31,982 nucleotides of DNA from a virus. The notes under the pieces are model-generated. The model made no database searches. It saw only the letters and a program-made list of their open reading frames with translations, and was not told the DNA's origin. Shown piece after piece: positions 1 to 31,982 of this stretch. A program made the translations under genes and the position numbers. Where the stretch lies: the IMG/VR virus record IMGVR_UViG_3300012013_000098, positions 1-31,982 of that record, one strand, 5' to 3'. The first letter of the stretch is position 1. Each line of letters begins with the position of its first letter.

Positions 1-55
1 CGATAATGTCCTGGAAGGTATATTTACCTTTTTCCGGGTGGATAGAAGTATACCA
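1..55. repeat. 55-bp terminal direct repeat identical to 31928-31982 (circular-contig assembly overlap)
   Basis: Base-by-base identity between window start and end. The length equals a commonly used de Bruijn k-mer (55). Confidence 0.9.
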
Positions 56-214
56 TGAATCACACCAGCCGCCTTCTCCGAACCAGCATCTGTGGGTGCA
101 GCCGGTTGTTCTTACGGCTATAGTTGGGCGCCCTTGTCTCGAACCCTCCGATTGTATACACGGATACAATTCAATTAAGGGAAGTCGTTTAGTGTAATCT
201 TTAAGCCTGTTCAC
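1..214 (-). CDS. queE: 7-carboxy-7-deazaguanine synthase QueE, N-terminal part (continues across the circular junction into 31371-31982)
   Basis: Manual minus-strand translation from GTG at 214 gives (M)[71 protein letters not shown]. This joins in frame to MYDAHPH of ORF 31371-31925. It has a QueE-like IQSEG motif and a radical-SAM Cys cluster. Confidence 0.8.
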   Translation of the reverse strand, partial: MNRLKDYTKRLPLIELYPCIQSEGSRQGRPTIAVRTTGCTHRCWFGEGGWCDSWYTSIHPEKGKYTFQDII

Positions 215-611
215 GGGGTCTATAAATTACTTTAGACGACTTTGTTTCTGCTAGGGAAATTTGTGTTAGAGGTAAGTCGGTCTCGTTAACAATTCTAGTT
301 GCTAACCACACACATAGATTTTCCGCCGAAGTTATAAAGGGTAATTTTTTATATTCCTCCCCCATCATGTCCAGAACTGGGACGAGTGGGTCTTCTTCCC
401 AGAGTAAGAAGTAGTGACAATAACCTTTTAAGATGGGTTCTACTAGGGCGTCTATGTCTGAAAAGAGACATGTAATTGAATTGGTCTTTGATTGGAAATT
501 GAAATCGCATTCTATTTCGTAAGTGTGTCCGTGAATTCTCCCGCATTTTTCCCCACCTTCCGGATTACGGTGGGCTGCATAAAAGTGGTATTTTTTGTTA
601 ATTATAAACAT
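201..611 (-). CDS. queD: 6-carboxy-5,6,7,8-tetrahydropterin synthase (QueD, PTPS T-fold)
   Basis: 136 aa. FYAAHRNPEGGEKCGRIHGHTYEIE matches the QueD AAH...KCGR-x-HGH-x-Y signature. The 3' end overlaps the queE start by 14 nt. Confidence 0.85.
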   Translation of the reverse strand: MFIINKKYHFYAAHRNPEGGEKCGRIHGHTYEIECDFNFQSKTNSITCLFSDIDALVEPILKGYCHYFLLWEEDPLVPVLDMMGEEYKKLPFITSAENLCVWLATRIVNETDLPLTQISLAETKSSKVIYRPREQA

Positions 612-614
612 AAC

Positions 615-1769
615 TTAGTTGGTTAATAATTTAGTAATGTATTCTTGCTCGTGCCAGACATTTAGTTCCGGCCCGGTATAGTCGGTGCAGACAATAAAGG
701 CTTCTAACCTTCTGCCTAGGTCGGCCCGTTGGGCTAACCCTTTATCTAGAATTTTATAATTGTCGGTTGCCTGGTTTAAAACGAAACCGGCCGAAGCAGC
801 ATCGAATGCATAATACTTAAATGTAATATCGTGCATCTCGGTAAAGCATCTAAAGTCTGGGTAAACTAAACAACAACCTAAAGCGTTTGCCTCTAGTGCT
901 GTCCAACTAACATAGTCCTGAAGGGAACAGTTAAATTGTATCTTAGAAGACTTTAACTCGTAGTAGTAATCTTCTTTAGTTAAGTTGGTTAGAATAGTAA
1001 ACCGGGGTTCTTGTTCTGCTAGTGCATAGAAGTCTTCCATAACCCCTTTTAAGTTGCTTCTAATGCTAGTTCCGGAAGTTGTAATCGTAAAGGTCCAGTC
1101 TTTATTTTCATCTAAGAAGTTTTTAATAACCTTCATTAAGAAGTAGGGGTTCTTTTCTTTATCGAACCGGCTAGTAAAGATAACGTTATTTTTTCTAGCC
1201 ACTTTATCCGGCGCGGTATCTAGAACATCTTGTAAGTGCAGAGGTAAAGACACAACGTGAATTGGTGCTTCGAACCCGGCCTGTCTTAACTGCTCTTTAT
1301 GAATAGTACTCCCAACAAATATTCCAGACATTCTTTTATCAATACCTAGCTCAAAAGATCTCATCCAGGACTTCATTGCAGAAGTAAAGTCGTATTCATC
1401 TACAGATTGGGCGTGCAACATAGAAAAGACTTTTACCCTTTTCAAATTGTATAAGTCTAAAGCATAGAAGACTGATTCAATACCCGGCGTCCAGAAGTCC
1501 TGTAAGAAGATAACATCTCCATCTTTTACTGCGCCGGTGTTTATTGCGTCCAGAAGTAAAGCACACTGGTCCATAGCCCATTTACCCCTACCAACAGCAT
1601 CTAGAACTACACCAACGTTAATGTTATCCCCACTCTGAATTGGCTTTAAATTAACAAAGTTGTATTCGTGGCTATATTCTGCAAATGCTTCCGGCATCCA
1701 GATGTTGGACAGCTGGTAAGTGTATCTTTCTTTTAACGGCTCTAGGCCGAAGTACCAAATTGTTTTCAT
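615..1769 (-). CDS. GT-B fold glycosyltransferase-like protein (GT4-like C-terminal half)
   Basis: 384 aa. VIFTSRFDKEKNPYFLMKV and DYVSWTALEANALGCCLVYP (a D-x7-E variant of the EX7E motif) resemble retaining GT-B enzymes. ATGA overlap with the methyltransferase stop and a 3-nt gap to queD. Confidence 0.5.
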   Translation of the reverse strand: MKTIWYFGLEPLKERYTYQLSNIWMPEAFAEYSHEYNFVNLKPIQSGDNINVGVVLDAVGRGKWAMDQCALLLDAINTGAVKDGDVIFLQDFWTPGIESVFYALDLYNLKRVKVFSMLHAQSVDEYDFTSAMKSWMRSFELGIDKRMSGIFVGSTIHKEQLRQAGFEAPIHVVSLPLHLQDVLDTAPDKVARKNNVIFTSRFDKEKNPYFLMKVIKNFLDENKDWTFTITTSGTSIRSNLKGVMEDFYALAEQEPRFTILTNLTKEDYYYELKSSKIQFNCSLQDYVSWTALEANALGCCLVYPDFRCFTEMHDITFKYYAFDAASAGFVLNQATDNYKILDKGLAQRADLGRRLEAFIVCTDYTGPELNVWHEQEYITKLLTN

Positions 1770-2356
1770 TTTATTATTGCCCAGGAACTATCTACAAAAG
1801 TTAAGTGGGGTAAACCAACAACCTCATTTACCGCCCGGCTAACCTCTAACCTTAATTTATGATTCTTATCGAAGTCGATAATTTCTTCTCTCTGCTTATC
1901 TGTATACTCGATTAGGTAATCGTGGCCGGATATAACCCCGCCTTGTTTTACCTTAGGGGTAAACAATTCCAGGTCTAATTTTACCTGCTCGTAAGTGTGA
2001 AGTCCATCAACATAAAGACAGTCAAAGTAATCATCTTTAAATAAGTCCACTATGTCCTGGCTATAGTACTTACACTTTACTAAATTTCTAACGGCTAGGG
2101 TTTCGTTATTGAATGCTTCTTCTACTAGAGATAAGTCGGTTTCGTTTATTAAGTCGTTATCATCTATCAATTCGTCCCACGGGTCAATTGCAACAATCAT
2201 AACATCTTCACCTAGAACTTCTTTCATCATTCTAATACTTTCTCCGGCGTAAGAACCTATTTCTAAAATCTTCTTTACGTTGTTCTGCTTTAAGAAGTCG
2301 CAGTAGTCTAAAAATCCTTCCCATAAGAAAGAACCTTCTGGTCTCATTTCAATCAT
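1766..2356 (-). CDS. Class I SAM-dependent methyltransferase (Methyltransf_24 / TylF-CmcI-like O-methyltransferase family)
   Basis: 196 aa. Motif I is ILEIGSYAGES, and YVDGLHTYEQVKLDLELFTPKVKQGGVISGHDY is typical of this family. ATGA overlaps on both sides. Confidence 0.7.
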   Translation of the reverse strand: MIEMRPEGSFLWEGFLDYCDFLKQNNVKKILEIGSYAGESIRMMKEVLGEDVMIVAIDPWDELIDDNDLINETDLSLVEEAFNNETLAVRNLVKCKYYSQDIVDLFKDDYFDCLYVDGLHTYEQVKLDLELFTPKVKQGGVISGHDYLIEYTDKQREEIIDFDKNHKLRLEVSRAVNEVVGLPHLTFVDSSWAIIK

Positions 2357-2766
2357 AAGATATCGTCTTTATAGTCGTTAGGTTGAACTGCTAGCCCATT
2401 GTATTTAGTAAAGCAAATTACGTGATAAGGTTCTGTCTTATCTATAAAAACACTATCAGTCGGTTTTAGATTAAAGATGTTATCATCGACAACTCTATAA
2501 ATTAGATGGGTTCTAACTTTAATGTTGGGGGTAAGTAAATGATAATTTTTATTATTACATTCAACAGAAATCATATAGTTGGAATTAATACACAGATCTT
2601 CTATTTGTTCAACCCCGCCTTTTGTTTCTAAAAACTCTTTTGTAAAGTAAAGATGCTTTACCTTTACCGGGTCTATCTCACCAATTTCATATCTAATGAA
2701 CTTAGTTTCAATTCCGTAAAGTCTACCCTCTACTTCTTTTCCGTACCAGTTATTTTTCTTTTGCAT
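2353..2766 (-). CDS. Hypothetical protein (137 aa) inside the modification operon
   Basis: I prefer the ATG at 2766 (MQKKNNWYGKEVEG...), because the track start at 2817 would overlap the upstream gene by 49 nt. ATGA overlap with the methyltransferase start. No family recognised by eye. Confidence 0.5.
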   Translation of the reverse strand: MQKKNNWYGKEVEGRLYGIETKFIRYEIGEIDPVKVKHLYFTKEFLETKGGVEQIEDLCINSNYMISVECNNKNYHLLTPNIKVRTHLIYRVVDDNIFNLKPTDSVFIDKTEPYHVICFTKYNGLAVQPNDYKDDIL

Positions 2767-2768
2767 TA

Positions 2769-3101
2769 TTATTTTATTAGGTAAGCACCGTTCTCGTTGT
2801 CCTCTAGAACTTCGCACGCTGCTAAATTAAATTTATCAATTAACATCTCGGCTATCATTTCACAGGACTTAGGACCGAAATCAATTCCTCTTGGTGTTGA
2901 CCAATTTAATAACCAGGCTTGCATTTCCCTTTTTAGAACAATAAATTCGATATCTCTATCTGCGTGGGAAACTTCTTTCCAGGCTTTAATCCAGAAGACG
3001 TGTCTGTGTGGGTAATTTAAAAAGTCTACTTCTGGAATATCGCATCCGGGCCAGTGGTGTAAGCCTTCTACTTGAAGGGTAATAACTATTTGTTGTCTCA
3101 T
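2769..3101 (-). CDS. Second PTPS/QueD-like T-fold protein (paralog, function unknown)
   Basis: 110 aa from ATG 3101 (MRQQIVITLQVEGLHHWPG...YPHRHVFWIKAW). The H...HRH pattern parallels AAH...HGH of QueD. ATGA overlap with the dpdA stop (3098-3101). Confidence 0.45.
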   Translation of the reverse strand: MRQQIVITLQVEGLHHWPGCDIPEVDFLNYPHRHVFWIKAWKEVSHADRDIEFIVLKREMQAWLLNWSTPRGIDFGPKSCEMIAEMLIDKFNLAACEVLEDNENGAYLIK

Positions 3102-3997
3102 CTTAACGGGTTTGTTTTCCAATCTAATTTTCCAGCCTCGTACTGTTCCTGAATTCCTGCAACTAATCTAAGTTGACTCTCTGCACCTATAGCCATAAAT
3201 ACCCTTAACCCGTTATTGTAAGAATACTTCTGGTATTCTAAAAAGGCTAGGGTAGACATATAGGCATTTAACCCCTTCATCCCCGACCTATAATTTCTAA
3301 AGTCCAGGGCTTCTTTGGGCGAGGCCTTCACCTTTTCGAAGGCCTCTATTAACCCCGGAGGTAATTTAAGCTTCTTACCGGACACTAGGGCTTTATTGTC
3401 TATTGTCTTTAGACCAACGCCGGGTTCGAACCAGGGAATAAGTCCATACACAACTGAATGTCCCCAGGAAGCAGAGTCGACTGAATGAAGGGGAAGTTGA
3501 TACATTTCCGGCCACTTAACGAAACCTAGCCCGTGGGTTTTGCAGGGGTTATTTTTATAAACCCGTTGGTATCTCTGTTGCATCCATTCTGCTTTAGAAA
3601 TTGTTCCGCCTGCAACACACACGTGTTCATTTTTATTTGTAGCATCTTTTAGATAAGCCCAGTCGTTATCTAATCTAGTAAAGACAAACATAGGATTAAA
3701 TCCCCGGGCGAGCATTGTTTCATAATTGTATTTAGTTTCCTTATCGTTGTTAATAACATCCAGCATAACATACTTTTCTGTATAAGGAGCCCATTGCTCT
3801 AAATAAGTACAATACCCATTTAAATCTAATCCTTTCCCCCCGGTCTTAGCGTTGAAAATTGTATAGGCCCCTGAGTCGATCATAGTGTTAGCTTGACCCG
3901 ACATCGATATAGACTTAAACAATTTAGAAAACTCTTCGTCTCTACTTAGATAAGCATACGAACAGAGCACATTGAAATAAGTGTTATTGGAAATCAC
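3098..3997 (-). CDS. dpdA: DpdA-like DNA guanine transglycosylase (TGT superfamily)
   Basis: 299 aa with a GTG start. Blocks MIDSGAYTIF (catalytic-Asp DSGA motif), YVMLDV, VCVAGG, THGLGF and SVDSASW are as in phage DpdA. Embedded among queD, queE and folE. Confidence 0.7.
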   Translation of the reverse strand: MISNNTYFNVLCSYAYLSRDEEFSKLFKSISMSGQANTMIDSGAYTIFNAKTGGKGLDLNGYCTYLEQWAPYTEKYVMLDVINNDKETKYNYETMLARGFNPMFVFTRLDNDWAYLKDATNKNEHVCVAGGTISKAEWMQQRYQRVYKNNPCKTHGLGFVKWPEMYQLPLHSVDSASWGHSVVYGLIPWFEPGVGLKTIDNKALVSGKKLKLPPGLIEAFEKVKASPKEALDFRNYRSGMKGLNAYMSTLAFLEYQKYSYNNGLRVFMAIGAESQLRLVAGIQEQYEAGKLDWKTNPLR

Positions 3998-4523
3998 AGT
4001 CTGGATATTTTTCAGTTAAGAATTCCATAATCACCCCTTTTATTTCGTCCATCTGATCTTTATAAGTTTCCGACACTACAATCTTTATAGTTAGATGCTT
4101 GTCGCCGCCTGGAAGGGGCATATCTAAATCCTCCATAATCTCTTCTAAGTTGTCCCAGTCGTGTTTAATTACTTTTAGACCCCAGTCTTCTAACAAATCG
4201 ATATTCCAATCTTCTTGCAGGACTTTCCAGTCCCATTCTCCGAATGAAGAGTTGTCTTTAATAACGAACTCTTTCTTTTGATCTTCTGTTAACCCAGTTG
4301 CTCTTTGAATTGAAATTGTTTTAAGTCCTGCTTCTTTCGCAGCCTTTAATCTCATGTTCCCACCCAGGACTACTAAATCTTCGTCCACCACTAAAGGTCT
4401 TAAATTTAACATCTCTGGAAAGTCCTTTATCGACTTAACCAGTTTTTTAAATTGTTCAGGATTAATGAACCTCGGGTTTTCTGGGTTCTCCTTAACTTTT
4501 TCAATATTGATTATTTCTATCAC
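3984..4523 (-). CDS. ParB N-terminal (ParB/Srx-like) domain protein
   Basis: 179 aa with a GTG start that sits 3 nt after a TATAG box. ENPRFINPEQFKKLVKSIKDF...LRPLVV...VVLGGNMRLKAAKEAG matches the ParB-like nuclease/NTPase domain. 14-nt overlap with dpdA. Confidence 0.7.
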   Translation of the reverse strand: MIEIINIEKVKENPENPRFINPEQFKKLVKSIKDFPEMLNLRPLVVDEDLVVLGGNMRLKAAKEAGLKTISIQRATGLTEDQKKEFVIKDNSSFGEWDWKVLQEDWNIDLLEDWGLKVIKHDWDNLEEIMEDLDMPLPGGDKHLTIKIVVSETYKDQMDEIKGVIMEFLTEKYPDCDFQ

Positions 4524-4526
4524 CTT

Positions 4527-4540
4527 CTATATATCAATTT
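4527..4540 (-). promoter_or_regulatory. Start-proximal box TTGATATATAG-N3-GTG (class B motif)
   Basis: Minus strand reads AAATTGATATATAGAAG then GTG. The TATAG-N3-start geometry is the same as at 6699, 7451, 9573 and 9513. Confidence 0.45.
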
Positions 4541-4562
4541 CTGTTTTCATCTAAAATTTAGA

Positions 4563-4582
4563 CTTTTTAGTCCTTTTTAGTC
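4563..4582. repeat. Tandem 10-bp direct repeat CTTTTTAGTC x2
   Basis: Read directly: 4563-4572 and 4573-4582 are identical. Confidence 0.85.
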
Positions 4583-4606
4583 TTACCCTCTTGATATTAT
4601 CAGATT

Positions 4607-4635
4607 TAATTAAATAACTAATCGTTATTTAATTA
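4607..4635. repeat. Perfect 12-bp inverted repeat TAATTAAATAAC-N5-GTTATTTAATTA
   Basis: Read directly. Arms at 4607-4618 and 4624-4635. Confidence 0.85.
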
Positions 4636-4649
4636 TAACCCAACTTATT

Positions 4650-4672
4650 AATAAACGGATAAACCGTTTATT
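4650..4672. repeat. Perfect 9-bp inverted repeat AATAAACGG-N5-CCGTTTATT
   Basis: Read directly. A third copy, AACCGTTTATT, lies at 4818-4828. Confidence 0.85.
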
Positions 4673-4888
4673 TTCCGTTCCGATAATTATTTTAATTATC
4701 TTTACCTTATTTTATAATCAAAGGCGGGGCCTCACGAATTTAATTTTACTCTACAAGTTTAATAGTGCCAATCTGAACTGCAAGATAACGTCCCGCCGGG
4801 CAAAATTCGTAAAAAGTAACCGTTTATTATCGATTCAGATGGGGCTTTAGATACTCAACCGGTACTATCCTGTCGTAATTCTCCTACC

Positions 4889-4903
4889 GTTTCCGGGTTT
4901 CCG
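4889..4903. repeat. Short iteron-like repeat GTTTCCG x2 (8-bp period)
   Basis: Copies at 4889-4895 and 4897-4903. A related GTTTCCCG lies at 4932-4939. Confidence 0.6.
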
Positions 4904-4963
4904 TCTTGATTTACTTCTACAGTTTAAGAAGGTTTCCCGATTCGAGGGTCGATTAATTTAAAT

Positions 4964-4995
4964 ATTATATAGCCATCAGGAAGAAGTATTTCCCT
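4964..4995 (-). promoter_or_regulatory. Class A promoter candidate AGGGAAATACTT-N14-TATAAT
   Basis: Minus strand reads AGGGAAATACTTCTTCCTGATGGCTATATAATATT. It shares the 12-mer AGGGAAATACTT and identical spacing to TATAAT with 28805-28836. It fires into the 430-nt untranslated region upstream of the ParB-like gene. Confidence 0.5.
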
Positions 4996-5011
4996 ATGTC
5001 CAGAACTTTTT

Positions 5012-9585: not shown

Positions 9586-10482
9586 ATGATAAAAAAATCA
9601 ATTAATTTAGTTTTACATATTAACGGCGGGCTCGGTAAATGTATTATGTCCACTGCGGTTATTGCGTCTTACAAAAGAACTTTTCCTGATGCAAAGGTAA
9701 TCGTAGTGTCAGGCTACCCCGAAGTTTTCGTTAACAATCCATACGTTTATAAGAACTTTCCCTTTGCCACTCCTTACCTCTGGCAAGACTACTACGGCCA
9801 GGCGGGCTGGAAAGTATCCGCCCACGACCCCTACATGGAGGAAAGCTGGATTAAGAATGAAAATCTTCACCTTATAGATATCTGGTGTCGCATGTTAGGT
9901 GTTGATTCAGTCCAGAAGACGCCGCTGCTATACTTTGCTAGTCCAGAAGTGGACGAACTTAACACGATGATTAAAGTCGATAAGCCTCTAGTGGTTGTCC
10001 AGTCCACCGGAGGAGCAAATGCTGCTGCCCGTAGCTGGACCAGAACGCCACCGGCTGGTGAGTTCGACGAGTTCCTAGGAAGATACATGGAAACCCACTT
10101 CGTCGTCCATCTGTGCTTGCCTGAAACCCCCGTGTTGACCAACGTGCATCAGAGGGTGGATAATCTGAACCGTCGCCAGGCCTTAGCCCTAGTTTATTTT
10201 GCCGCAGAAGTTGTTGGGATTGATTCCTATGCTATGCACGCTCGTGCAGCAAACTTAGAGGCTGGGCCTAGTACAATCTTCTTCCCACTTGCCGAGTCAG
10301 TGGTAAGATTAGGTTATCCCCAATTCGTTAATTTAGTGCCCACCCCAGCAGTCCAGGACATGCTTAGAAATCACACCGACTACTTTGCAACTGTGTTTAA
10401 ATTGTCAATCGAAAATGCTGGGGAGAATTGCCCGGTACCAGTTGGAACCAAATGGTTCAACCTTGGCCCACAGACCGTTTAA
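9586..10482 (+). CDS. Glycosyltransferase family 9 (heptosyltransferase)-like protein
   Basis: 298 aa. NLVLHINGGLGKCIMSTAVIASYKRTFPDAKVIVVSGYPEVFVNNPYV, VVVQSTGGANAAARSW and ALVYFAAEVVGIDSYAMHARAA follow the GT9 layout. It is the only convincing plus-strand gene and is locally GC-rich. Confidence 0.6.
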   Translation: MIKKSINLVLHINGGLGKCIMSTAVIASYKRTFPDAKVIVVSGYPEVFVNNPYVYKNFPFATPYLWQDYYGQAGWKVSAHDPYMEESWIKNENLHLIDIWCRMLGVDSVQKTPLLYFASPEVDELNTMIKVDKPLVVVQSTGGANAAARSWTRTPPAGEFDEFLGRYMETHFVVHLCLPETPVLTNVHQRVDNLNRRQALALVYFAAEVVGIDSYAMHARAANLEAGPSTIFFPLAESVVRLGYPQFVNLVPTPAVQDMLRNHTDYFATVFKLSIENAGENCPVPVGTKWFNLGPQTV

Positions 10483-26721: not shown

Positions 26722-27273
26722 TTACTCATTTTCTGCCGGGGGAATTTCATCCACGAATTCTAAAATCCAATTTCCGAATATCGTATGTTTTTTCTTTTTC
26801 CAATAAGCGAATTTCATATTGGAAATTCCCAGAAATTCCAGGGCGTCTACTAGTGCATCGAAGTTAAGAATTATTCCTTCTTCTTTGCAGGTAAGTTTAA
26901 TTGGGCGGGCTCGAAACCTCCGGGTATTCTCAGAGGGGGTTGCCCATCTTAAATTTTCCACCCGGTTATCTGAGCGGTCGTTGTTAATGTGGTCCACTTC
27001 TTTTTTATTCTCTGGATTAGGAATAAAGGTTTGCGCTACTATTCTGTGGCAAGAGAGAGTTAAAGACCTTCTTTCGAATTCACCCCGGAAAGACAGGGTG
27101 GTAGATGAATACCCAGTCCTGCTATTTACAAAGGTCTTACAGGGCCTTCCCGCCCATGTTCCGCTTCCGGGCGTTGTCCGTCTGAAATTTCCTTCTGAAC
27201 TAACTTCATAGTCGGGCCAGTCGGCGATTGTTCTCCATTCTTCGTTAGTCGTTATCTTCGTCGCTTGTGTCAT
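26722..27273 (-). CDS. HNH homing endonuclease (NUMOD4 + HNH_3)
   Basis: 183 aa. EEWRTIADWPDYEVSSEGNFRR (NUMOD4) and CHRIVAQTFIPNP...VDHINNDRSDNRVENLRWATPSEN (HNH). Overlaps the upstream gene by 29 nt. Confidence 0.85.
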   Translation of the reverse strand: MTQATKITTNEEWRTIADWPDYEVSSEGNFRRTTPGSGTWAGRPCKTFVNSRTGYSSTTLSFRGEFERRSLTLSCHRIVAQTFIPNPENKKEVDHINNDRSDNRVENLRWATPSENTRRFRARPIKLTCKEEGIILNFDALVDALEFLGISNMKFAYWKKKKHTIFGNWILEFVDEIPPAENE

Positions 27274-28873: not shown

Positions 28874-30124
28874 TTACGTCCAGGTCTCTTCCGGTGGGTT
28901 CATCCTCTTCCGGCCCGCAACGGCGTATCGTGGCCCACCTTTGAAGGAGTGGGTGGCATACCTCAGGGCGTCCATCAGGTGGTTGTAGGAGTCGATGGGC
29001 TTATCTGTCCCGGTCCGGTAGGCGTAGTTGTAATATTCCTCGATTAAATTCTCAGAAGACGGGTGGACAAATACCTCGTAGGTTCTTAGCCGGTCGATAC
29101 CCGCCCTAATTGAGTCCGGGCCCTTTACGGCCGGGTTGCAATTTCTCCAGCCCAGCCTTCTCAGCGTCTCGATGGACTTAGGTTCAGCGGAGTCGGCGTA
29201 AATCGAGGCCGTCCTTGGAATTTTTAAACTGTCCATCTTAGCAGAGATGTCCTCGTTGGTGAGGCCCTGGGAATACATTAACTCTTCCACCCAAATCCTC
29301 TTACCCCTTTTATAAACTTTTACCAGTGCGGTGGGGTCGGCTGCGAAGCCCCAGTCCAGCCCGTAAACAATTTCCGCCTCTGGGTCCGGGGTAAACTCGA
29401 ATCTCCAGTTCTTAAATACCTGTCCTTCCCCGATATCTTTCCACTGGCCTTCTATATGGTGGGCGTAGTAGTCTGGGTCGTACACACCAATGTCTTCCCA
29501 CTCCTTTATCTTCTTAGGGTCCAGGTTGTCCGCGTTGTCTTTATAAGTGGTGTGGAGGTATCCGTGGTTGTGGGTCCACCTAGGGCTGGGCTGCCCATCG
29601 GGTAAGTAGAACCTTTTGTAGATCCAGTGGGACTTAGACGTCGGGTTGAATAGCAGGAATATTTTCCTGTCCGCGCCCTTCTGTCTAAATGAGTCGATTA
29701 GTTTAACATACTCCTCCTCAGAAGGTAATTCTGTAGCCTCATCTATAAGAAGGTGAGTTACACGGGCGAGTCCCTTACCCTTGGCCGTCACAGTTCCTTC
29801 TTGCAGCCTCATAGCGTGGGTGGTAATCATATTCTTAGAACCCACCGCTCTTATCTCCTCGCCCTTTATTAACAGGTATTGGGCTACCCCCCAGTCGTTA
29901 ATTAAATCCACTATGTCCCTATAAATCGAGGACGATATAGACTTCTGGGTGTATCTGGTTATAACCCCGCGGAAGTACTCTGGGGATAAAAGCTTCATTA
30001 AGAAGTATGCAGCCGCCTGGGTGGACTTCCCGGATGCACGGCCGCCCGAGATAATCCAATACGTCTTGTCGTTGTCCTGGAAGACTGGGCCGAACCACTC
30101 TAAGAACTTAAAACTCTTGGTCAT
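28874..30124 (-). CDS. terL: Terminase large subunit (PBSX/Terminase_3-like)
   Basis: Walker A GGRASGKST and Walker B HLLIDEATEL, followed by a C-terminal nuclease region. I prefer ATG 30124 (MTKSFKFLEW), which gives a 17-nt overlap with terS instead of the longer track ORF. Confidence 0.9.
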   Translation of the reverse strand: MTKSFKFLEWFGPVFQDNDKTYWIISGGRASGKSTQAAAYFLMKLLSPEYFRGVITRYTQKSISSSIYRDIVDLINDWGVAQYLLIKGEEIRAVGSKNMITTHAMRLQEGTVTAKGKGLARVTHLLIDEATELPSEEEYVKLIDSFRQKGADRKIFLLFNPTSKSHWIYKRFYLPDGQPSPRWTHNHGYLHTTYKDNADNLDPKKIKEWEDIGVYDPDYYAHHIEGQWKDIGEGQVFKNWRFEFTPDPEAEIVYGLDWGFAADPTALVKVYKRGKRIWVEELMYSQGLTNEDISAKMDSLKIPRTASIYADSAEPKSIETLRRLGWRNCNPAVKGPDSIRAGIDRLRTYEVFVHPSSENLIEEYYNYAYRTGTDKPIDSYNHLMDALRYATHSFKGGPRYAVAGRKRMNPPEETWT

Positions 30125-30506
30125 CTGAGATATCAATGATTGGTCCTGGAAGCCCGGGGGAAATCCCACCCGGTAAGATAATCTGGACGGGCGAGAAGGT
30201 GTCAATCCCGATTAACGGGGACTCGATGTAGCCCCTTTCCTTCCCACGGGTCTTTAAGTAGAAGATTGTGGCCGCCGTGTTGCCCTCCCGGATCTGTTTG
30301 AACAGCTGGGACTCCACGAAGTCCAGGGTCACTGCCTGGATACCATCGACTGCCTCTTTAAAGGCCGGGTCGTCATTATAGTACTTATAGAACTGGCTCC
30401 GGGATATCCCAGCCTGCTTAACGGCCGAGGTGACTACGCCCAGACTTTGCTCCAGCGCCGCGAGCGCCCGCTCTTTACTCTGTTCTATTTTGTTCTCTAC
30501 TGACAT
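30108..30506 (-). CDS. terS: Terminase small subunit
   Basis: 132 aa. ALEQSLGVVTSAVKQAGISRSQFYKYYNDDPAFKEAV...TAATIFYLKTRGKERGY is a typical HTH small-terminase pattern. Confidence 0.8.
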   Translation of the reverse strand: MSVENKIEQSKERALAALEQSLGVVTSAVKQAGISRSQFYKYYNDDPAFKEAVDGIQAVTLDFVESQLFKQIREGNTAATIFYLKTRGKERGYIESPLIGIDTFSPVQIILPGGISPGLPGPIIDISDDQEF

Positions 30507-30544: not shown

Positions 30545-31366
30545 TTATTGTTTAATTAGATGTAAGAACTCCTGCCTCGCCTTCTGGTCCTCTTTGAATA
30601 CACCCAGCATCTTAGACGTTGTGGTGTGGGTATCGTGCTTCTTTACTCCCCTCATAGCCATGCATAGATGCTGGGCTGTTATAACAACGGCTACACCTTT
30701 AGCATTTAACTCTTTCATTAGCCTTTCTGCGACTTGGGTGGTTATTCTTTCTTGGTTCTGGAAAGCCCTAGCATATAAGTCCACACAACGGGCTAGTTTA
30801 GATAACCCGACTATCTTACCGTTGGGAATGTATGCAACGTGGGCGTGTCCGAAGAACGGTGCTAGGTGGTGTTCACATAGAGAGTAGAACGGAATGTTAG
30901 TTTGGATAATCATTTCATCTGTGCCCTCAGCGTCGAATGTCGTAAAATTAAACTCTTCTGGGTTAAGAAACTCTTTTAGAAACTTAATGTATCTTCTTGG
31001 TGTTTCTTTTAGCCCTTCTCTATTAGGGTTGTCGAAGTATTCTATTACTCTTAGCATATTCTCTTCTACTTCTTTGTGTCCTTCTTGCTCCCATGGAAAT
31101 TGTATCCACTGTTGAACGGGCTCTTCCCTTTTGTCTATTAGTCCTATAAACGGTTTATCTGGAAAGAGTGCATTATATTTAGATTGGGTTGCGCCGGAGT
31201 CTATTAAATCATCTATAATTATGTCCGCCTCTTCTGGGCTGTCCACTGGGTTAAGCATTGCTGCTATGTATTGTCCACCTCTAGGTACTCCATAGTAGGT
31301 CTTTGTTCTGTCTAGAGGGAGGATAAGTTGCTTTATCTCTTCCCAGGTTATTTTTCTTTCTTGCAT
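30545..31366 (-). CDS. folE: Fusion of a Gpt-like purine phosphoribosyltransferase domain (aa 1-95) with GTP cyclohydrolase I FolE (aa 96-273)
   Basis: The N-terminal part ITWEEIK...[13 protein letters not shown]...[12 protein letters not shown]...WIQFPWEQ parallels E. coli Gpt (VTWDM...AVSRGG...IVIDDLVDTGGT...WIEQPWDM). The C-terminal part [11 protein letters not shown]...[21 protein letters not shown]...GLSKLAR...QNQERIT...HLCMAMRGV is canonical FolE. Confidence 0.8.
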
Positions 31367-31370
31367 AGTG

Positions 31371-31982
31371 TTAAACTGCTCTTTTGGTATCGAATGCTAT
31401 GATGTGGTCGCGGCCGGTCCAGCAGTATCCCATCTCGAGGGCCTTTTCAATTGATTTAGCATACTCGTGAATTAGAGTTTGGCGCGTATCTCCCGCCGGC
31501 ATTAACCAGGTTTTTGTTTTAGGTATACCCATGTCTTCTCGGAAGGTCTCTATTTCACGTAGTGTGGTAGGAGCCCCATCCCAGACTGGTTTAAAATGAT
31601 AATCCTTATGGAATAATAAGGTTTGTTTTATAGCGTCTAAATTTAACCGGTCCCTATTATGGGTTTGTATAAACTTCTCGTCCACTACATTTCCTTTGGG
31701 CGTTAGGATACCTAATTTAGGTATAGAGTTGGAAAACTTAGGCGATAATGAAATTAAATCTATAGGGTAATCTGTTTCTAGGAAGTGTGAACCTTCTGTC
31801 TCCATAGTAATAAAGATGTTCCTTTCCTGTGCGAAGTGGGTTAACTCGTTAACTAGTTCTGGGTGCATAGTTGGGGAGCCGCCGGTTAGCATCATTTCTG
31901 TGATGTGCGGGTGGGCGTCATACATGTCGATAATGTCCTGGAAGGTATATTTACCTTTTTCCGGGTGGATAGAAGTATACCA
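31371..31982 (-). CDS. queE: QueE, C-terminal part (N-terminus at 1-214 across the junction)
   Basis: The frame stays open upstream of the listed ATG 31925 through the window end. The sequence [13 protein letters not shown]...ETEGS is QueE-like (LTGGEP analogue). Confidence 0.8.
31928..31982. repeat. 55-bp terminal direct repeat identical to 1-55
   Basis: Base-by-base identity with the window start. Confidence 0.9.

Follow-up and report, generated by a model that had tools for sequence, protein, structure and literature searches.

A putative QueC-less, DpdL-type 7-deazaguanine DNA-modification operon with an associated glycosyltransferase in a circular phage genome

The DNA of the phage described here probably carries 2'-deoxy-7-deazaguanine (dDG) or a sugar-decorated dDG derivative, judging from the genes that it encodes. 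The window, that is, the whole stretch of 31,982 nucleotides that was analysed, contains a chain of minus-strand genes that we are inclined, with modest confidence, to read as a QueC-less DNA-modification operon of the DpdL type. A glycosyltransferase (GT), a 137-residue protein and a methyltransferase would serve as tailoring enzymes, and the product would be dDG or a decorated derivative of dDG or of 7-carboxy-7-deazaguanine (CDG).

The phage genome is circular, with a unit of 31,927 bp; bases 1–55 of the window are repeated as bases 31928–31982, forming a 55-bp terminal repeat. The order of the chain is ParB-like, DpdA, T-fold paralog, 137-aa protein, methyltransferase, GT, QueD, QueE, a phosphoribosyltransferase (PRT)-like::FolE fusion, terS and terL, all on the minus strand. 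The initial annotation described this chain as running into terS and terL, and the ORF coordinates agree with it, reproducing the ATGA overlaps at 3098–3101, 2353–2356 and 1766–1769 and the 14-nt overlaps of ParB with DpdA and of QueD with QueE; the other gaps are 2–4 nt. Both terS (30108–30506) and terL (28874–30205, or from a later ATG start) are profile matches. The closest relatives of terL are those of Nonlabens and Cellulophaga phages, which points to a Bacteroidota-type host range. Upstream of the module lies an AT-rich non-coding stretch of about 490 nt (4524–5011) with direct and inverted repeats of the AACCGTTTAT type. ORFs of at least 45 aa are absent from it, and it may be where the operon is regulated.

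The pathway is defined by the absence of one enzyme and the presence of another. No called gene matches the QueC profile PF06508 or Gat-QueC, and none gives a QueF or GATase match above threshold. A phmmer --max search with E. coli QueC against 700 six-frame segments of at least 25 aa gave a best E-value of 6, and none of the six frames contains an SGGxDS motif in either strict or relaxed form. The absences of QueC, QueF and an amidotransferase reported in the initial annotation were thus upheld; all the profile searches that it suggested were carried out, and no result contradicts its inference. The T-fold paralog (2769–3101, minus strand, 110 aa) is QueD-like, and its more specific identity was missed in that annotation. 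Its motif LNYPHRHVF fits the LxxxHRHxF signature of DpdL, its full length aligns with CGPG_00067 of Cellulophaga phage φST at 38.6% identity, and it matches phrog_17812 (1.2e-22) as well as the DpdL of Acidovorax phage ACP17. By signature and homology, it is DpdL, the proposed CDG decarboxylase. DpdL, a QueD paralog with a substitution at the catalytic Cys, is the published candidate for decarboxylation of CDG to 7-deazaguanine; it occurs in phages with FolE, QueD, QueE and DpdA and without QueC, of which the type member, φST, carries dDG (PMC10516641). Because the paralog has the DpdL signature and φST homology, the module is assignable by sequence to this published QueC-less class. Since QueC is absent and DpdL is found in QueC-less phages of this class, a CDG-derived, non-cyano base is the best reading of the gene set, in support of the earlier proposal of a CDG-derived base in place of preQ0, ADG, preQ1 or G+.

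The enzymes predicted to supply CDG are well represented. FolE, which occupies residues 96–273 of a fusion protein (30545–31366, minus strand), matches TIGR00063 (1.4e-58, above the curated cut-off) and PF01227 (4.8e-64) and is a GTP cyclohydrolase I. QueD, the 6-carboxytetrahydropterin synthase (201–611, minus strand, 136 aa), contains the CGRIHGH motif and matches PTPS at 7e-19, with a TIGR03367 score (3.9e-14) under the curated cut-off. QueE, the radical-SAM CDG synthase, wraps the junction on the minus strand. Its N-terminal part lies at 1–214, with a GTG start at 214 and the terminal repeat at bases 1–55, and its C-terminal part at 31371–31982, so that the circularized ORF encodes 256 aa. 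Profile matches are to phrog_2076 (2.1e-44), Bsubt_queE (1.5e-15) and Radical_SAM (2e-7). QueE is 61% identical to that of φST and 68–69% identical to those of phages encoding a family-B DNA polymerase (PolB phages), and only 27% identical to that of the clade relative L006. The N-terminal domain of the FolE fusion, approximately residues 1–95, has xanthine(-guanine) PRTases as its best PDB matches (6.5e-4), with VPRGG among the aligned segments. Together with matches to NF006613 (2.3e-4) and phrog_8995 (5.9e-6), and none in Pfam, these weakly support a short, Gpt-like phosphoribosyltransferase. The same fusion is found in related loci L005, L014 and L015, and PRTase genes recur in related phage clusters, as Gpt in BUCT-ZZ01 and as Pribosyltran in L012.

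The candidate DNA guanine transglycosylase, DpdA (3098–3997, minus strand, 299 aa, GTG start), matches phrog_887, 'queuine tRNA-ribosyltransferase', at 4.8e-26, and its tblastn matches are annotated phage DpdA/TGT genes. AF2 predicts a TIM barrel (pLDDT 90.4), which finds phage queuine tRNA-ribosyltransferases in BFVD at E-values from 7e-13, and the catalytic-type Asp motifs D41-S42-G43 and D174-S175 are invariant across 36 homologues. Pfam TGT gave no match, and counting against the assignment, the fold finds only generic TIM barrels in the PDB. The ParB-like gene (3984–4523, minus strand) encodes a 179-aa ParB N-terminal-domain protein with a GGNMR box. It matches phrog_620 and phrog_498 at 1e-26 and Pfam ParB_N at 1.5e-5 (25.4 bits, slightly below the 26.3-bit cut-off). 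Homologues occupy the same position in L005, L006, L008 and L015, and the ParB–DpdA pair keeps its overlapping ends across the clade. In bacteria, the ParB-like ATPase DpdB is needed for DpdA activity (PMC10164549), and by analogy the ParB-like protein may be a DpdB-like NTPase that partners DpdA.

GT (615–1769, minus strand, 384 aa) is a GT-B fold, GT4-like glycosyltransferase. Its AF2 model (pLDDT 85.5) has Foldseek PDB matches that include MshA, BshA, PimA and SenB, at E-values of 1e-11 to 1e-9; matches to Pfam GT1 are slightly under the cut-off, and residues R201, K206, D285 and E293 are invariant. GT lies between DpdL and QueD, a slot that it also occupies in five related loci (L005, L006, L008, L014 and L015; 26–93% identity). 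In unrelated marine PolB phages, GT adjoins DpdL and a TGT-like gene, and in a fourth PolB-phage contig it adjoins FolE. A search of 50,697 phage records gave GT matches in 18 cultured-phage records, every one of them within the 29 that are DpdL-positive; no other GT4 gene in those records matches the family. Six records were fetched or had their coordinates compared, and in each of them GT and DpdL are adjacent or at most 3 kb apart. Overall, GT is confined to DpdL-positive genomes in at least eight lineages, adjoining DpdL or DpdA each time.

The DpdL-associated protein of 137 aa (2353–2766, minus strand) has no match in Pfam, PHROG or the PDB, and belongs to a family with 99 representatives at E ≤ 1e-3, with conserved residues E11, E13, H38, H87, D104 and D135. 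Four other lineages carry it beside DpdL, GT or DpdA, and family members are so placed in L010–L012, ACP17, Xanthomonas phage X1 and Burkholderia phage BCSR5. Two metagenomic proteins, P0291 and P0322, carry the domain as a C-terminal fusion to DpdL. Previously, this protein had been labelled an orphan and, like GT, treated as a bystander; the family and its DpdL fusions, and for GT the conserved slot and the exclusively DpdL-positive records, speak against both descriptions. GT and the 137-aa protein are a conserved, unexplained part of the module, and we found no description of their link to the 7-deazaguanine pathway in the searchable literature. The class I SAM methyltransferase (1766–2356, minus strand, 196 aa) is of the cation-dependent O-methyltransferase type, matching Methyltransf_24 at 1.6e-17; its nearest solved structures, weak matches at 6e-3, are flavonoid and caffeoyl-CoA O-methyltransferases. 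A search of 20 related loci (all except the E. coli reference L004) recovered it from L014 alone, a relative at 93% identity, so by sequence this O-methyltransferase-like gene is confined to the sublineage.

We propose the following pathway. FolE, QueD and QueE would supply CDG, a step resting on established family functions, and DpdL would decarboxylate it to 7-deazaguanine. The DpdA-family transglycosylase, probably assisted by the ParB-like protein whose gene overlaps its own, would then swap guanine in finished phage DNA for the 7-deazaguanine base. The swap would have to come after replication, because the genome encodes no recognizable DNA polymerase among its called genes. The Gpt-like domain would most likely salvage the guanine released by the exchange into the GMP/GTP pool on which FolE draws. 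GT and the 137-aa protein would act in the same pathway, joined in this sublineage by the O-methyltransferase-like enzyme, and these tailoring enzymes would most likely put a sugar, perhaps methylated, on the deazaguanine base before or after its insertion. The pathway would end in dDG or a decorated dDG/CDG derivative rather than preQ0, ADG, preQ1 or G+, and its purpose, judging from the family, would be to protect phage DNA from restriction. Huimycin biosynthesis, in which a GT and a SAM methyltransferase tailor the free 7-deazaguanine base, offers a chemical precedent (PMC7439116). Against sugar tailoring, 7-deazaguanine has no obvious hydroxyl acceptor, and the GT target could lie outside DNA. 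When ACP17 DpdL and DpdA alone were expressed in E. coli, no dDG was made, and the authors suggested that further enzymes may be needed; ACP17 has both GT and the small protein. These two are unnecessary for dDG in φST, since φST makes it without either. Of Pseudomonas phage PA5oct, all that is known is that its G is modified and that its DNA resists restriction enzymes with G in their recognition sites.

The tailoring genes could instead be merely co-located with a plain φST-type system that makes unmodified dDG, serving, for example, in host envelope glycan or virion protein modification. We consider this unlikely, while giving it real weight: φST attains full dDG replacement without GT or the small protein, the nearest structures to GT act on small molecules and lipids rather than DNA, and Methyltransf_24 O-methyltransferases are common in glycan clusters. 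It does not sit well with the strict nesting of GT in DpdL-positive genomes, with the failure of every other GT4 gene in the 50,697 phage records to match its family, or with the fusion of the small protein to DpdL. That CDG itself is inserted, giving dCDG, with DpdL in another role such as base binding or delivery and GT perhaps esterifying or modifying the carboxyl, appears improbable. CDG was not detected in φST DNA despite the same FolE, QueD, QueE and DpdL set, and the dCDG that occurs naturally in STSV-2 is a trace, 0.04% of G. Yet the decarboxylase activity of DpdL is a proposal, never reconstituted, and a carboxylate is a chemically plausible acceptor.

Schemes that depart further from the φST model fare worse. 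Most bacteria encode QueC, and a host QueC might complete the pathway, the phage genes boosting CDG supply and DpdA inserting host preQ0 to give dPreQ0 or a derivative. DpdA does fall in phrog_887 and has tblastn matches in the iggy and 9g phage groups, dPreQ0 being reported for iggy and archaeosine (dG+) for 9g, but DpdL would have no role, and we regard this scheme as very unlikely. We give hardly any credence to a route in which the PRT-like domain, in the manner of TubE in tubercidin synthesis, adds ribose phosphate to CDG or DG, and GT and the methyltransferase tailor the free deazapurine, as in huimycin. Such a route would end in a bioactive metabolite or a pool of modified nucleotides, with no base exchange into DNA. 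QueC-less tubercidin clusters do combine CDG, a PRTase and a decarboxylase, huimycin clusters have a GT and a methyltransferase acting on the base, and PRTase genes are recurrent in the phage clusters. Against this, a DpdA-family transglycosylase with a ParB-like partner is present in every case, and the accepted signature of DNA deazaguanine modification is DpdA; moreover, the called genes of the window include no kinase, reductase or polymerase for nucleotide processing and no UbiD-type decarboxylase.

The preferred reading, a DpdL-type operon with tailoring enzymes, can be set beside several known systems. The φST-type dDG system consists of FolE, QueD, QueE, DpdL and DpdA3 (Cui et al. 2023, PMC10516641). 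The window shares with it FolE, QueD and QueE without QueC, a DpdL with LxxxHRHxF, an adjacent DpdA-family gene and the Bacteroidota-type host range. It differs in its transglycosylase, which is of the phrog_887 type, so that assignment to the DpdA3 type of φST (phrog_20335) was rejected. φST, which has a MazG-like gene, lacks GT, a 137-aa family member, the methyltransferase, a cluster ParB-like gene and the PRT domain. ACP17, PA5oct, X1 and BCSR5 resemble the window in having DpdL with the same GT family adjacent or within 3 kb, along with QueE and FolE, and ACP17, X1 and BCSR5 share the 137-aa family as well. In contrast, these four have large myophage or jumbo genomes that encode polymerases of their own. 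Their candidate transglycosylases, of 420–540 aa, belong to other families (phrog_10773 or none), and they lack the ParB-like partner, the methyltransferase and the PRT::FolE fusion.

The bacterial Dpd system of Salmonella Montevideo likewise pairs a TIM-barrel guanine transglycosylase with a ParB-superfamily protein, the likeness to DpdB lying in the ParB N-domain, but it inserts QueC-made preQ0, which DpdC converts to ADG (PMC10164549). The huimycin and dapiramicin clusters of Kutzneria and Micromonospora have the same GTP cyclohydrolase I, QueD and QueE core, to which they add a glycosyltransferase and a SAM methyltransferase for tailoring a 7-deazaguanine base (PMC7439116), HuiG and HuiC being likened by enzyme type; they are QueC-dependent, proceeding through preQ0 to a free secondary metabolite, and lack DpdA. 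Tubercidin biosynthesis resembles the proposed pathway in dispensing with QueC, in building on CDG and in having both a phosphoribosyltransferase and a decarboxylation step, whereas its UbiD-family decarboxylase and GMP reductase are both absent here and its product is a free nucleoside. The QueC-less gene set is of a known type, with which a GT and a small partner protein travel in many unrelated phages.

The modification genes of the window form one chain on the minus strand, the strand that carries nearly all of its genes, as follows. A ParB-like gene (3984–4523) is followed by a DpdA-like gene (3098–3997), a T-fold paralog of QueD (2769–3101), the gene for a 137-aa protein (2353–2766), a methyltransferase gene (1766–2356), a glycosyltransferase (GT)-like gene (615–1769), QueD (201–611), QueE (256 aa, from 214 across the contig junction to 31371) and a fusion of a phosphoribosyltransferase (PRT)-like domain to FolE (30545–31366), after which terS and terL continue the chain. 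The gene calls, together with the circularised QueE reading frame, bear out the chain as it was described in the initial annotation, and the coordinates reproduce all of its ATGA overlaps, both 14-nt overlaps and the gaps of 2–4 nt. Since an exact 55-bp direct repeat is found at the two ends (1–55 and 31928–31982), the assembly is taken to be circular and complete, with a unit of 31,927 bp; the point at which the contig was linearised splits QueE.

FolE, QueD and QueE are co-encoded, as seen in Pfam, NCBIfam and PHROG scans. FolE exceeds the curated cut-offs, QueD is recognised as a PTPS protein and keeps the CxxxHGH motif as CGRIHGH, and QueE is recognised as a radical-SAM protein; PHROGs also recognise QueD and give QueE a match of 2e-44. 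The claim that QueC is missing from the whole genome holds up in each search made. The Pfam scan covered every called gene, the non-cluster genes being scanned as concatenates, and neither it nor the NCBIfam scan found a match to QueC (PF06508) in any called gene. For QueF and for an amidotransferase, nothing rose above threshold in any called gene. FolE gave a sub-threshold QueF-like echo, which is expected because FolE and QueF are both T-fold proteins. When E. coli QueC was compared by phmmer --max with 700 six-frame stop-to-stop segments, the best match was no better than E = 6, and the SGGxDS motif, strict or relaxed, occurs in none of the six frames of the window. The terminal repeat shows completeness, and the absence of QueC therefore holds for the complete genome. 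As no QueC-like domain was detected by profile, the inference drawn from its absence is not refuted by this check. A gene next to FolE in the DpdL/GT cluster of Xanthomonas phage X1 (L019 6338–6871) is annotated as a phosphoadenosine phosphosulfate reductase family protein, a family that we take to belong with QueC in the PP-loop superfamily; by phmmer, its product does not match E. coli QueC.

A QueC-less class of phage pathways has been described, of which Cellulophaga phage phiST is the type member. In that work, a QueD paralog, DpdL, was proposed as the decarboxylase of 7-carboxy-7-deazaguanine (CDG), with the signature LxxxHRHxF in place of CxxxHGH, and its activity was reconstituted neither for phiST nor for phage ACP17 (Cui et al. 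2023, PMC10516641). The 110-aa T-fold paralog of the window carries LNYPHRHVF, which fits this signature. Its alignment with CGPG_00067 of phiST spans the whole protein (38.6% identity, 7e-14), and the DpdL of ACP17 is matched as well. Judged by motif and homology, the paralog is DpdL. Because of this motif and homology, and because the true QueD keeps CGRIHGH, the module is assigned to the published QueC-less class, and every sequence-testable defining feature of a FolE/QueD/QueE/DpdL/DpdA class without QueC is present. The statement in the initial annotation that 2'-deoxy-7-deazaguanine (dDG) or dCDG occurs in the DNA of QueC-less phages was correct. To the extent that sequence can tell, the CDG-derived, non-cyano base inferred there is supported, and the inference can be sharpened to a base of the DpdL type, that is, probably dDG or a decorated derivative of it. 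In Chryseobacterium phage MA9V-3 (L002 7461–8342), DpdL makes up the last third of a protein of 293 aa, and the 180 aa that precede it do not match the 137-aa family.

The window QueE (31371–214) was compared with copies from the clade relative L006 (12541–13263), the marine phage contig L010 (1662–2483), which encodes a family-B DNA polymerase (PolB), and the related locus L001 (4959–5735). It shares 61–69% identity with the QueE proteins of phiST and the PolB phages and 27% with that of L006. Since it is nearer to the phiST and PolB copies than to the L006 copy, this mosaic indicates that parts of the cassette have been exchanged between phage lineages.

The DpdA-like protein (299 aa) matches phrog_887, "queuine tRNA-ribosyltransferase" (4.8e-26), and its AF2 model is a confident (beta/alpha)8 TIM barrel (pLDDT 90.4). 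By tblastn it matches the annotated DpdA genes of BcepGomr, iggy-like phages and mycobacteriophages, and a Foldseek search of the BFVD viral models recovers phage "queuine tRNA-ribosyltransferase" proteins from Arthrobacter, Microbacterium and Mycobacterium phages, Dinoroseobacter phage R5C and Vibrio phage nt-1. The PHROG, tblastn and BFVD matches place it in recognised phage DpdA families. In Pfam there is no match to the tRNA-guanine transglycosylase (TGT) family PF01702 even at E <= 5, a profile of 36 DpdA homologues run against PDB sequences gave noise and no TGT, and in a Foldseek search of the PDB the neighbours of the model were generic TIM barrels (KDO8P synthase, aldolases), with no TGT in the top 50. 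D41-S42-G43, D80, D110 and D174-S175 are invariant in the family, and the DSG at D41 and the VDS at D174 may correspond to the TGT motifs that hold the catalytic aspartates (general acid/base and nucleophile). A locus search of viral contigs with the single DpdA protein gave no confirmed relatives; homologues were gathered by protein search instead, and they make up a large family of metagenomic proteins of ~300 aa, whose contigs mostly measure 31–41 kb. The DpdA3 type of phiST is ruled out for the window protein, as BLAST is not significant and the PHROG families differ. BLAST likewise rejects a relation to the neighbours of DpdL in MA9V-3 and Faecalibacterium phage Roos, the sole similarity to any of these proteins being a short SxDSxSW patch. 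The 420–440-aa family of ACP17 and X1 (phrog_10773) is ruled out by the PHROG assignment.

The ParB-like protein scores 25.4 bits against ParB_N, for which the cut-off is 26.3, and 6.7e-26 against phrog_620; it has a GGNMR box, a GxxR nucleotide box. Its gene shares 14 nt with that of DpdA, and every clade relative examined (L005, L006, L008 and L015) keeps the two as a pair. Bacterial DpdA needs the ParB-like ATPase DpdB of the Dpd system to insert the base (PMC10164549), and by analogy the window protein is inferred to have a similar role.

The GT-like gene belongs to the module throughout the clade. That is, contigs with a DpdA relative carry ParB_N, DpdA, DpdL, a gene for a protein of 318–384 aa, QueD, QueE, FolE, terS and terL, and the 318–384-aa product is a homologue of the window GT (26–61% identity). 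The AF2 model of the window protein (pLDDT 85.5) has the GT-B fold of two Rossmann domains. Foldseek against the PDB gave 356 matches at E <= 1e-3, headed by MshA, BshA, PimA and glycogen synthase, and the nearest solved structures are retaining glycosyltransferases of the GT4 type, such as MshA, BshA, PimA and SenB. Against Pfam the protein stays below both gathering scores (Glycos_transf_1, 25.9 bits against 27; Glyco_trans_1_4, 20.8 against 26.4), and some of its homologues have precomputed PF00534 or PF13692 matches. R201, K206 and D285-x7-E293 are invariant in 30 homologues; in our own reading, they may be equated with the GT4 motif, a C-terminal acidic x7 E together with basic residues for the donor phosphate.

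The GT family has at least 826 members. Homologues with 54–58% identity are found in unrelated marine PolB-phage contigs, where the GT gene adjoins a TGT-like gene, a DpdL homologue, a cytidylyltransferase-like gene and FolE/QueD/QueE; on a fourth such contig, it adjoins FolE. A tblastn search of 50,697 cultured-phage records found the GT in 18, namely PA5oct-like jumbo phages, ACP17, X1 and BUDD, BCSR5, BUCT-ZZ01 and Phosso. Each of the 18 also has a DpdL match, which 29 records have in all. In six records, compared by coordinates or fetched, the two genes are neighbours or lie no more than 3 kb apart. Among the DpdL-positive phages that lack the GT is the phiST group, for which alone the chemistry has been measured. 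The cytidylyltransferase-like nucleotidyltransferase (PF01467) of the marine PolB phages (L010 6305–6727, L012 6254–6670 and L021 5226–5648) lies between a gene of the 137-aa family and DpdL-GT-TGT. It could make an activated donor for the GT, and it has no counterpart in the window.

The 137-aa protein had been considered an orphan. That view is overturned by an exhaustive profile search, which returned 99 cluster representatives. For the PolB phages, ACP17, X1 and BCSR5, a gene of this family neighbours that of the GT, DpdL or DpdA; two metagenomic proteins, P0291 and P0322, carry the domain as a C-terminal fusion to DpdL. The conserved Glu, His and Asp residues of the family suggest that it is an enzyme. 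No match was found in Pfam, PHROGs or NCBIfam, nor by profile in PDB sequences. BLAST and the family HMM show no similarity to CGPG_00066 of phiST or to the gene in the equivalent slot of MA9V-3.

The methyltransferase is a Methyltransf_24 protein, the weak structural relatives of which are cation-dependent O-methyltransferases. Among the loci examined, it is found only in the window and in a 93%-identical relative (L014). One PHROG label, "DNA methyltransferase" (phrog_2675), spans the generic SAM-binding region only; a function as a DNA base methyltransferase is rejected, the family and structure matches being solely of the O-methyltransferase type. The N-terminal ~95 aa of the FolE protein align with xanthine-guanine phosphoribosyltransferases through VPRGG and a second, 12-residue segment. 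The scores of this domain are weak (PDB 6.5e-4, NCBIfam 2.3e-4, PHROGs 5.9e-6), and in Pfam it has no match even at E <= 5. The PRT::FolE fusion recurs in the relatives L005, L014 and L015, and free PRTase genes occur in the clusters of BUCT-ZZ01 and the marine PolB contig L012.

The remainder of the genome gives some indication of the phage's host and replication. The terL product is a Terminase_3 protein with its nearest relatives in Nonlabens, Cellulophaga and Riemerella phages, and this closeness points to a Bacteroidota host; terS is assigned by PHROGs. Among the called genes, none was recognised as coding for a DNA polymerase, primase or helicase, and the window has no tRNA genes; the phage apparently relies on host replication. 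On related contigs, the region that precedes the module encodes ERF, DnaA_C-like, VRR_NUC and RNase_H_2 proteins. In the window, an AT-rich non-coding stretch of ~490 nt (4524–5011) lies directly upstream of the ParB-DpdA module, with repeats of the AACCGTTTAT type in direct and inverted orientation and two tandem copies of CTTTTTAGTC; the stretch may serve as promoter, operator or origin. The sole sizeable plus-strand reading frame (9586–10482, 298 aa) lies amid minus-strand structural genes and has no Pfam or PHROG match; its N-terminus looks Rossmann-like to us. A homing-endonuclease-like gene with HNH_3 and NUMOD4 (26722–27273, minus strand) is inserted amid the head and packaging genes.

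The pathway that we propose is as follows. By the established functions of their families, FolE converts GTP to H2NTP, QueD converts this to CPH4, and QueE then yields CDG. DpdL would then yield 7-deazaguanine from CDG, as is proposed, and unproven, in the literature. Once the phage DNA has been replicated, DpdA with the ParB-like NTPase would put the deazaguanine base in the place of guanine, and the Gpt-like domain would salvage the excised guanine towards GTP. The same pathway probably also includes the GT, the 137-aa protein and, in the window, the O-methyltransferase-like enzyme, given their conserved position, their co-occurrence within DpdL genomes in at least eight lineages and the gene fusion, evidence that is purely genomic but strong.

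For these additional proteins, we prefer a reading in which a sugar, here possibly methylated, would be added to the base before or after its insertion. Natural products offer a precedent in huimycin, for which the free 7-deazaguanine base is tailored by a GT together with a SAM methyltransferase (PMC7439116), and QueC-less tubercidin clusters combine CDG with a PRTase and a decarboxylase. Against the addition of a sugar, phiST makes dDG with neither the GT, the 137-aa protein nor the methyltransferase, and 7-deazaguanine is without an obvious hydroxyl acceptor. The additional proteins may instead be missing enzymes of the dDG pathway itself. PA5oct DNA is known to resist restriction enzymes with G-containing recognition sites. 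We offer only tentatively, as a possibility that we regard as somewhat unlikely, that phages with DpdL, a GT4-like GT and the 137-aa protein carry an undescribed, sugar-bearing 7-deazaguanine, with an O-methylated sugar in the window lineage. These phages include the uncultured Bacteroidota-type clade, the abundant marine PolB phages, ACP17, the PA5oct-like jumbo phages, X1, BCSR5 and BUCT-ZZ01. Such a base, if real, would be the first case of a glycosylated purine analogue in a genome and would explain the failure to reconstitute DpdL and DpdA alone.

The presence of 7-deazaguanine genes without QueC is largely explained already by the published phiST work, in which DpdL leads to dDG, and the window adds a further example of that class, from a widespread clade of uncultured phages with genomes mostly of ~31–41 kb. 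What is new with respect to the searchable literature, in which no glycosyltransferase is mentioned in connection with DpdL or dDG, is the strict genetic linkage of the GT family and the small protein, sometimes fused to DpdL, to DpdL itself. This linkage spans at least eight phage lineages, several of them cultured, including PA5oct, whose DNA has a modified G, and ACP17, whose modification could not be reconstituted. It is therefore directly testable in cultured phages and may reveal either a new DNA hypermodification or the missing dDG-pathway enzymes; either outcome bears on restriction evasion, on defence systems that sense modified G and on the sequencing and enzymatic handling of such DNA. 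Compared with the phiST type system, the window shares the FolE/QueD/QueE/DpdL/DpdA set without QueC. It differs in that its transglycosylase is of another subfamily and has a ParB-like partner, in its PRT::FolE fusion and, above all, in its conserved GT and small protein, to which a lineage-specific methyltransferase is added.
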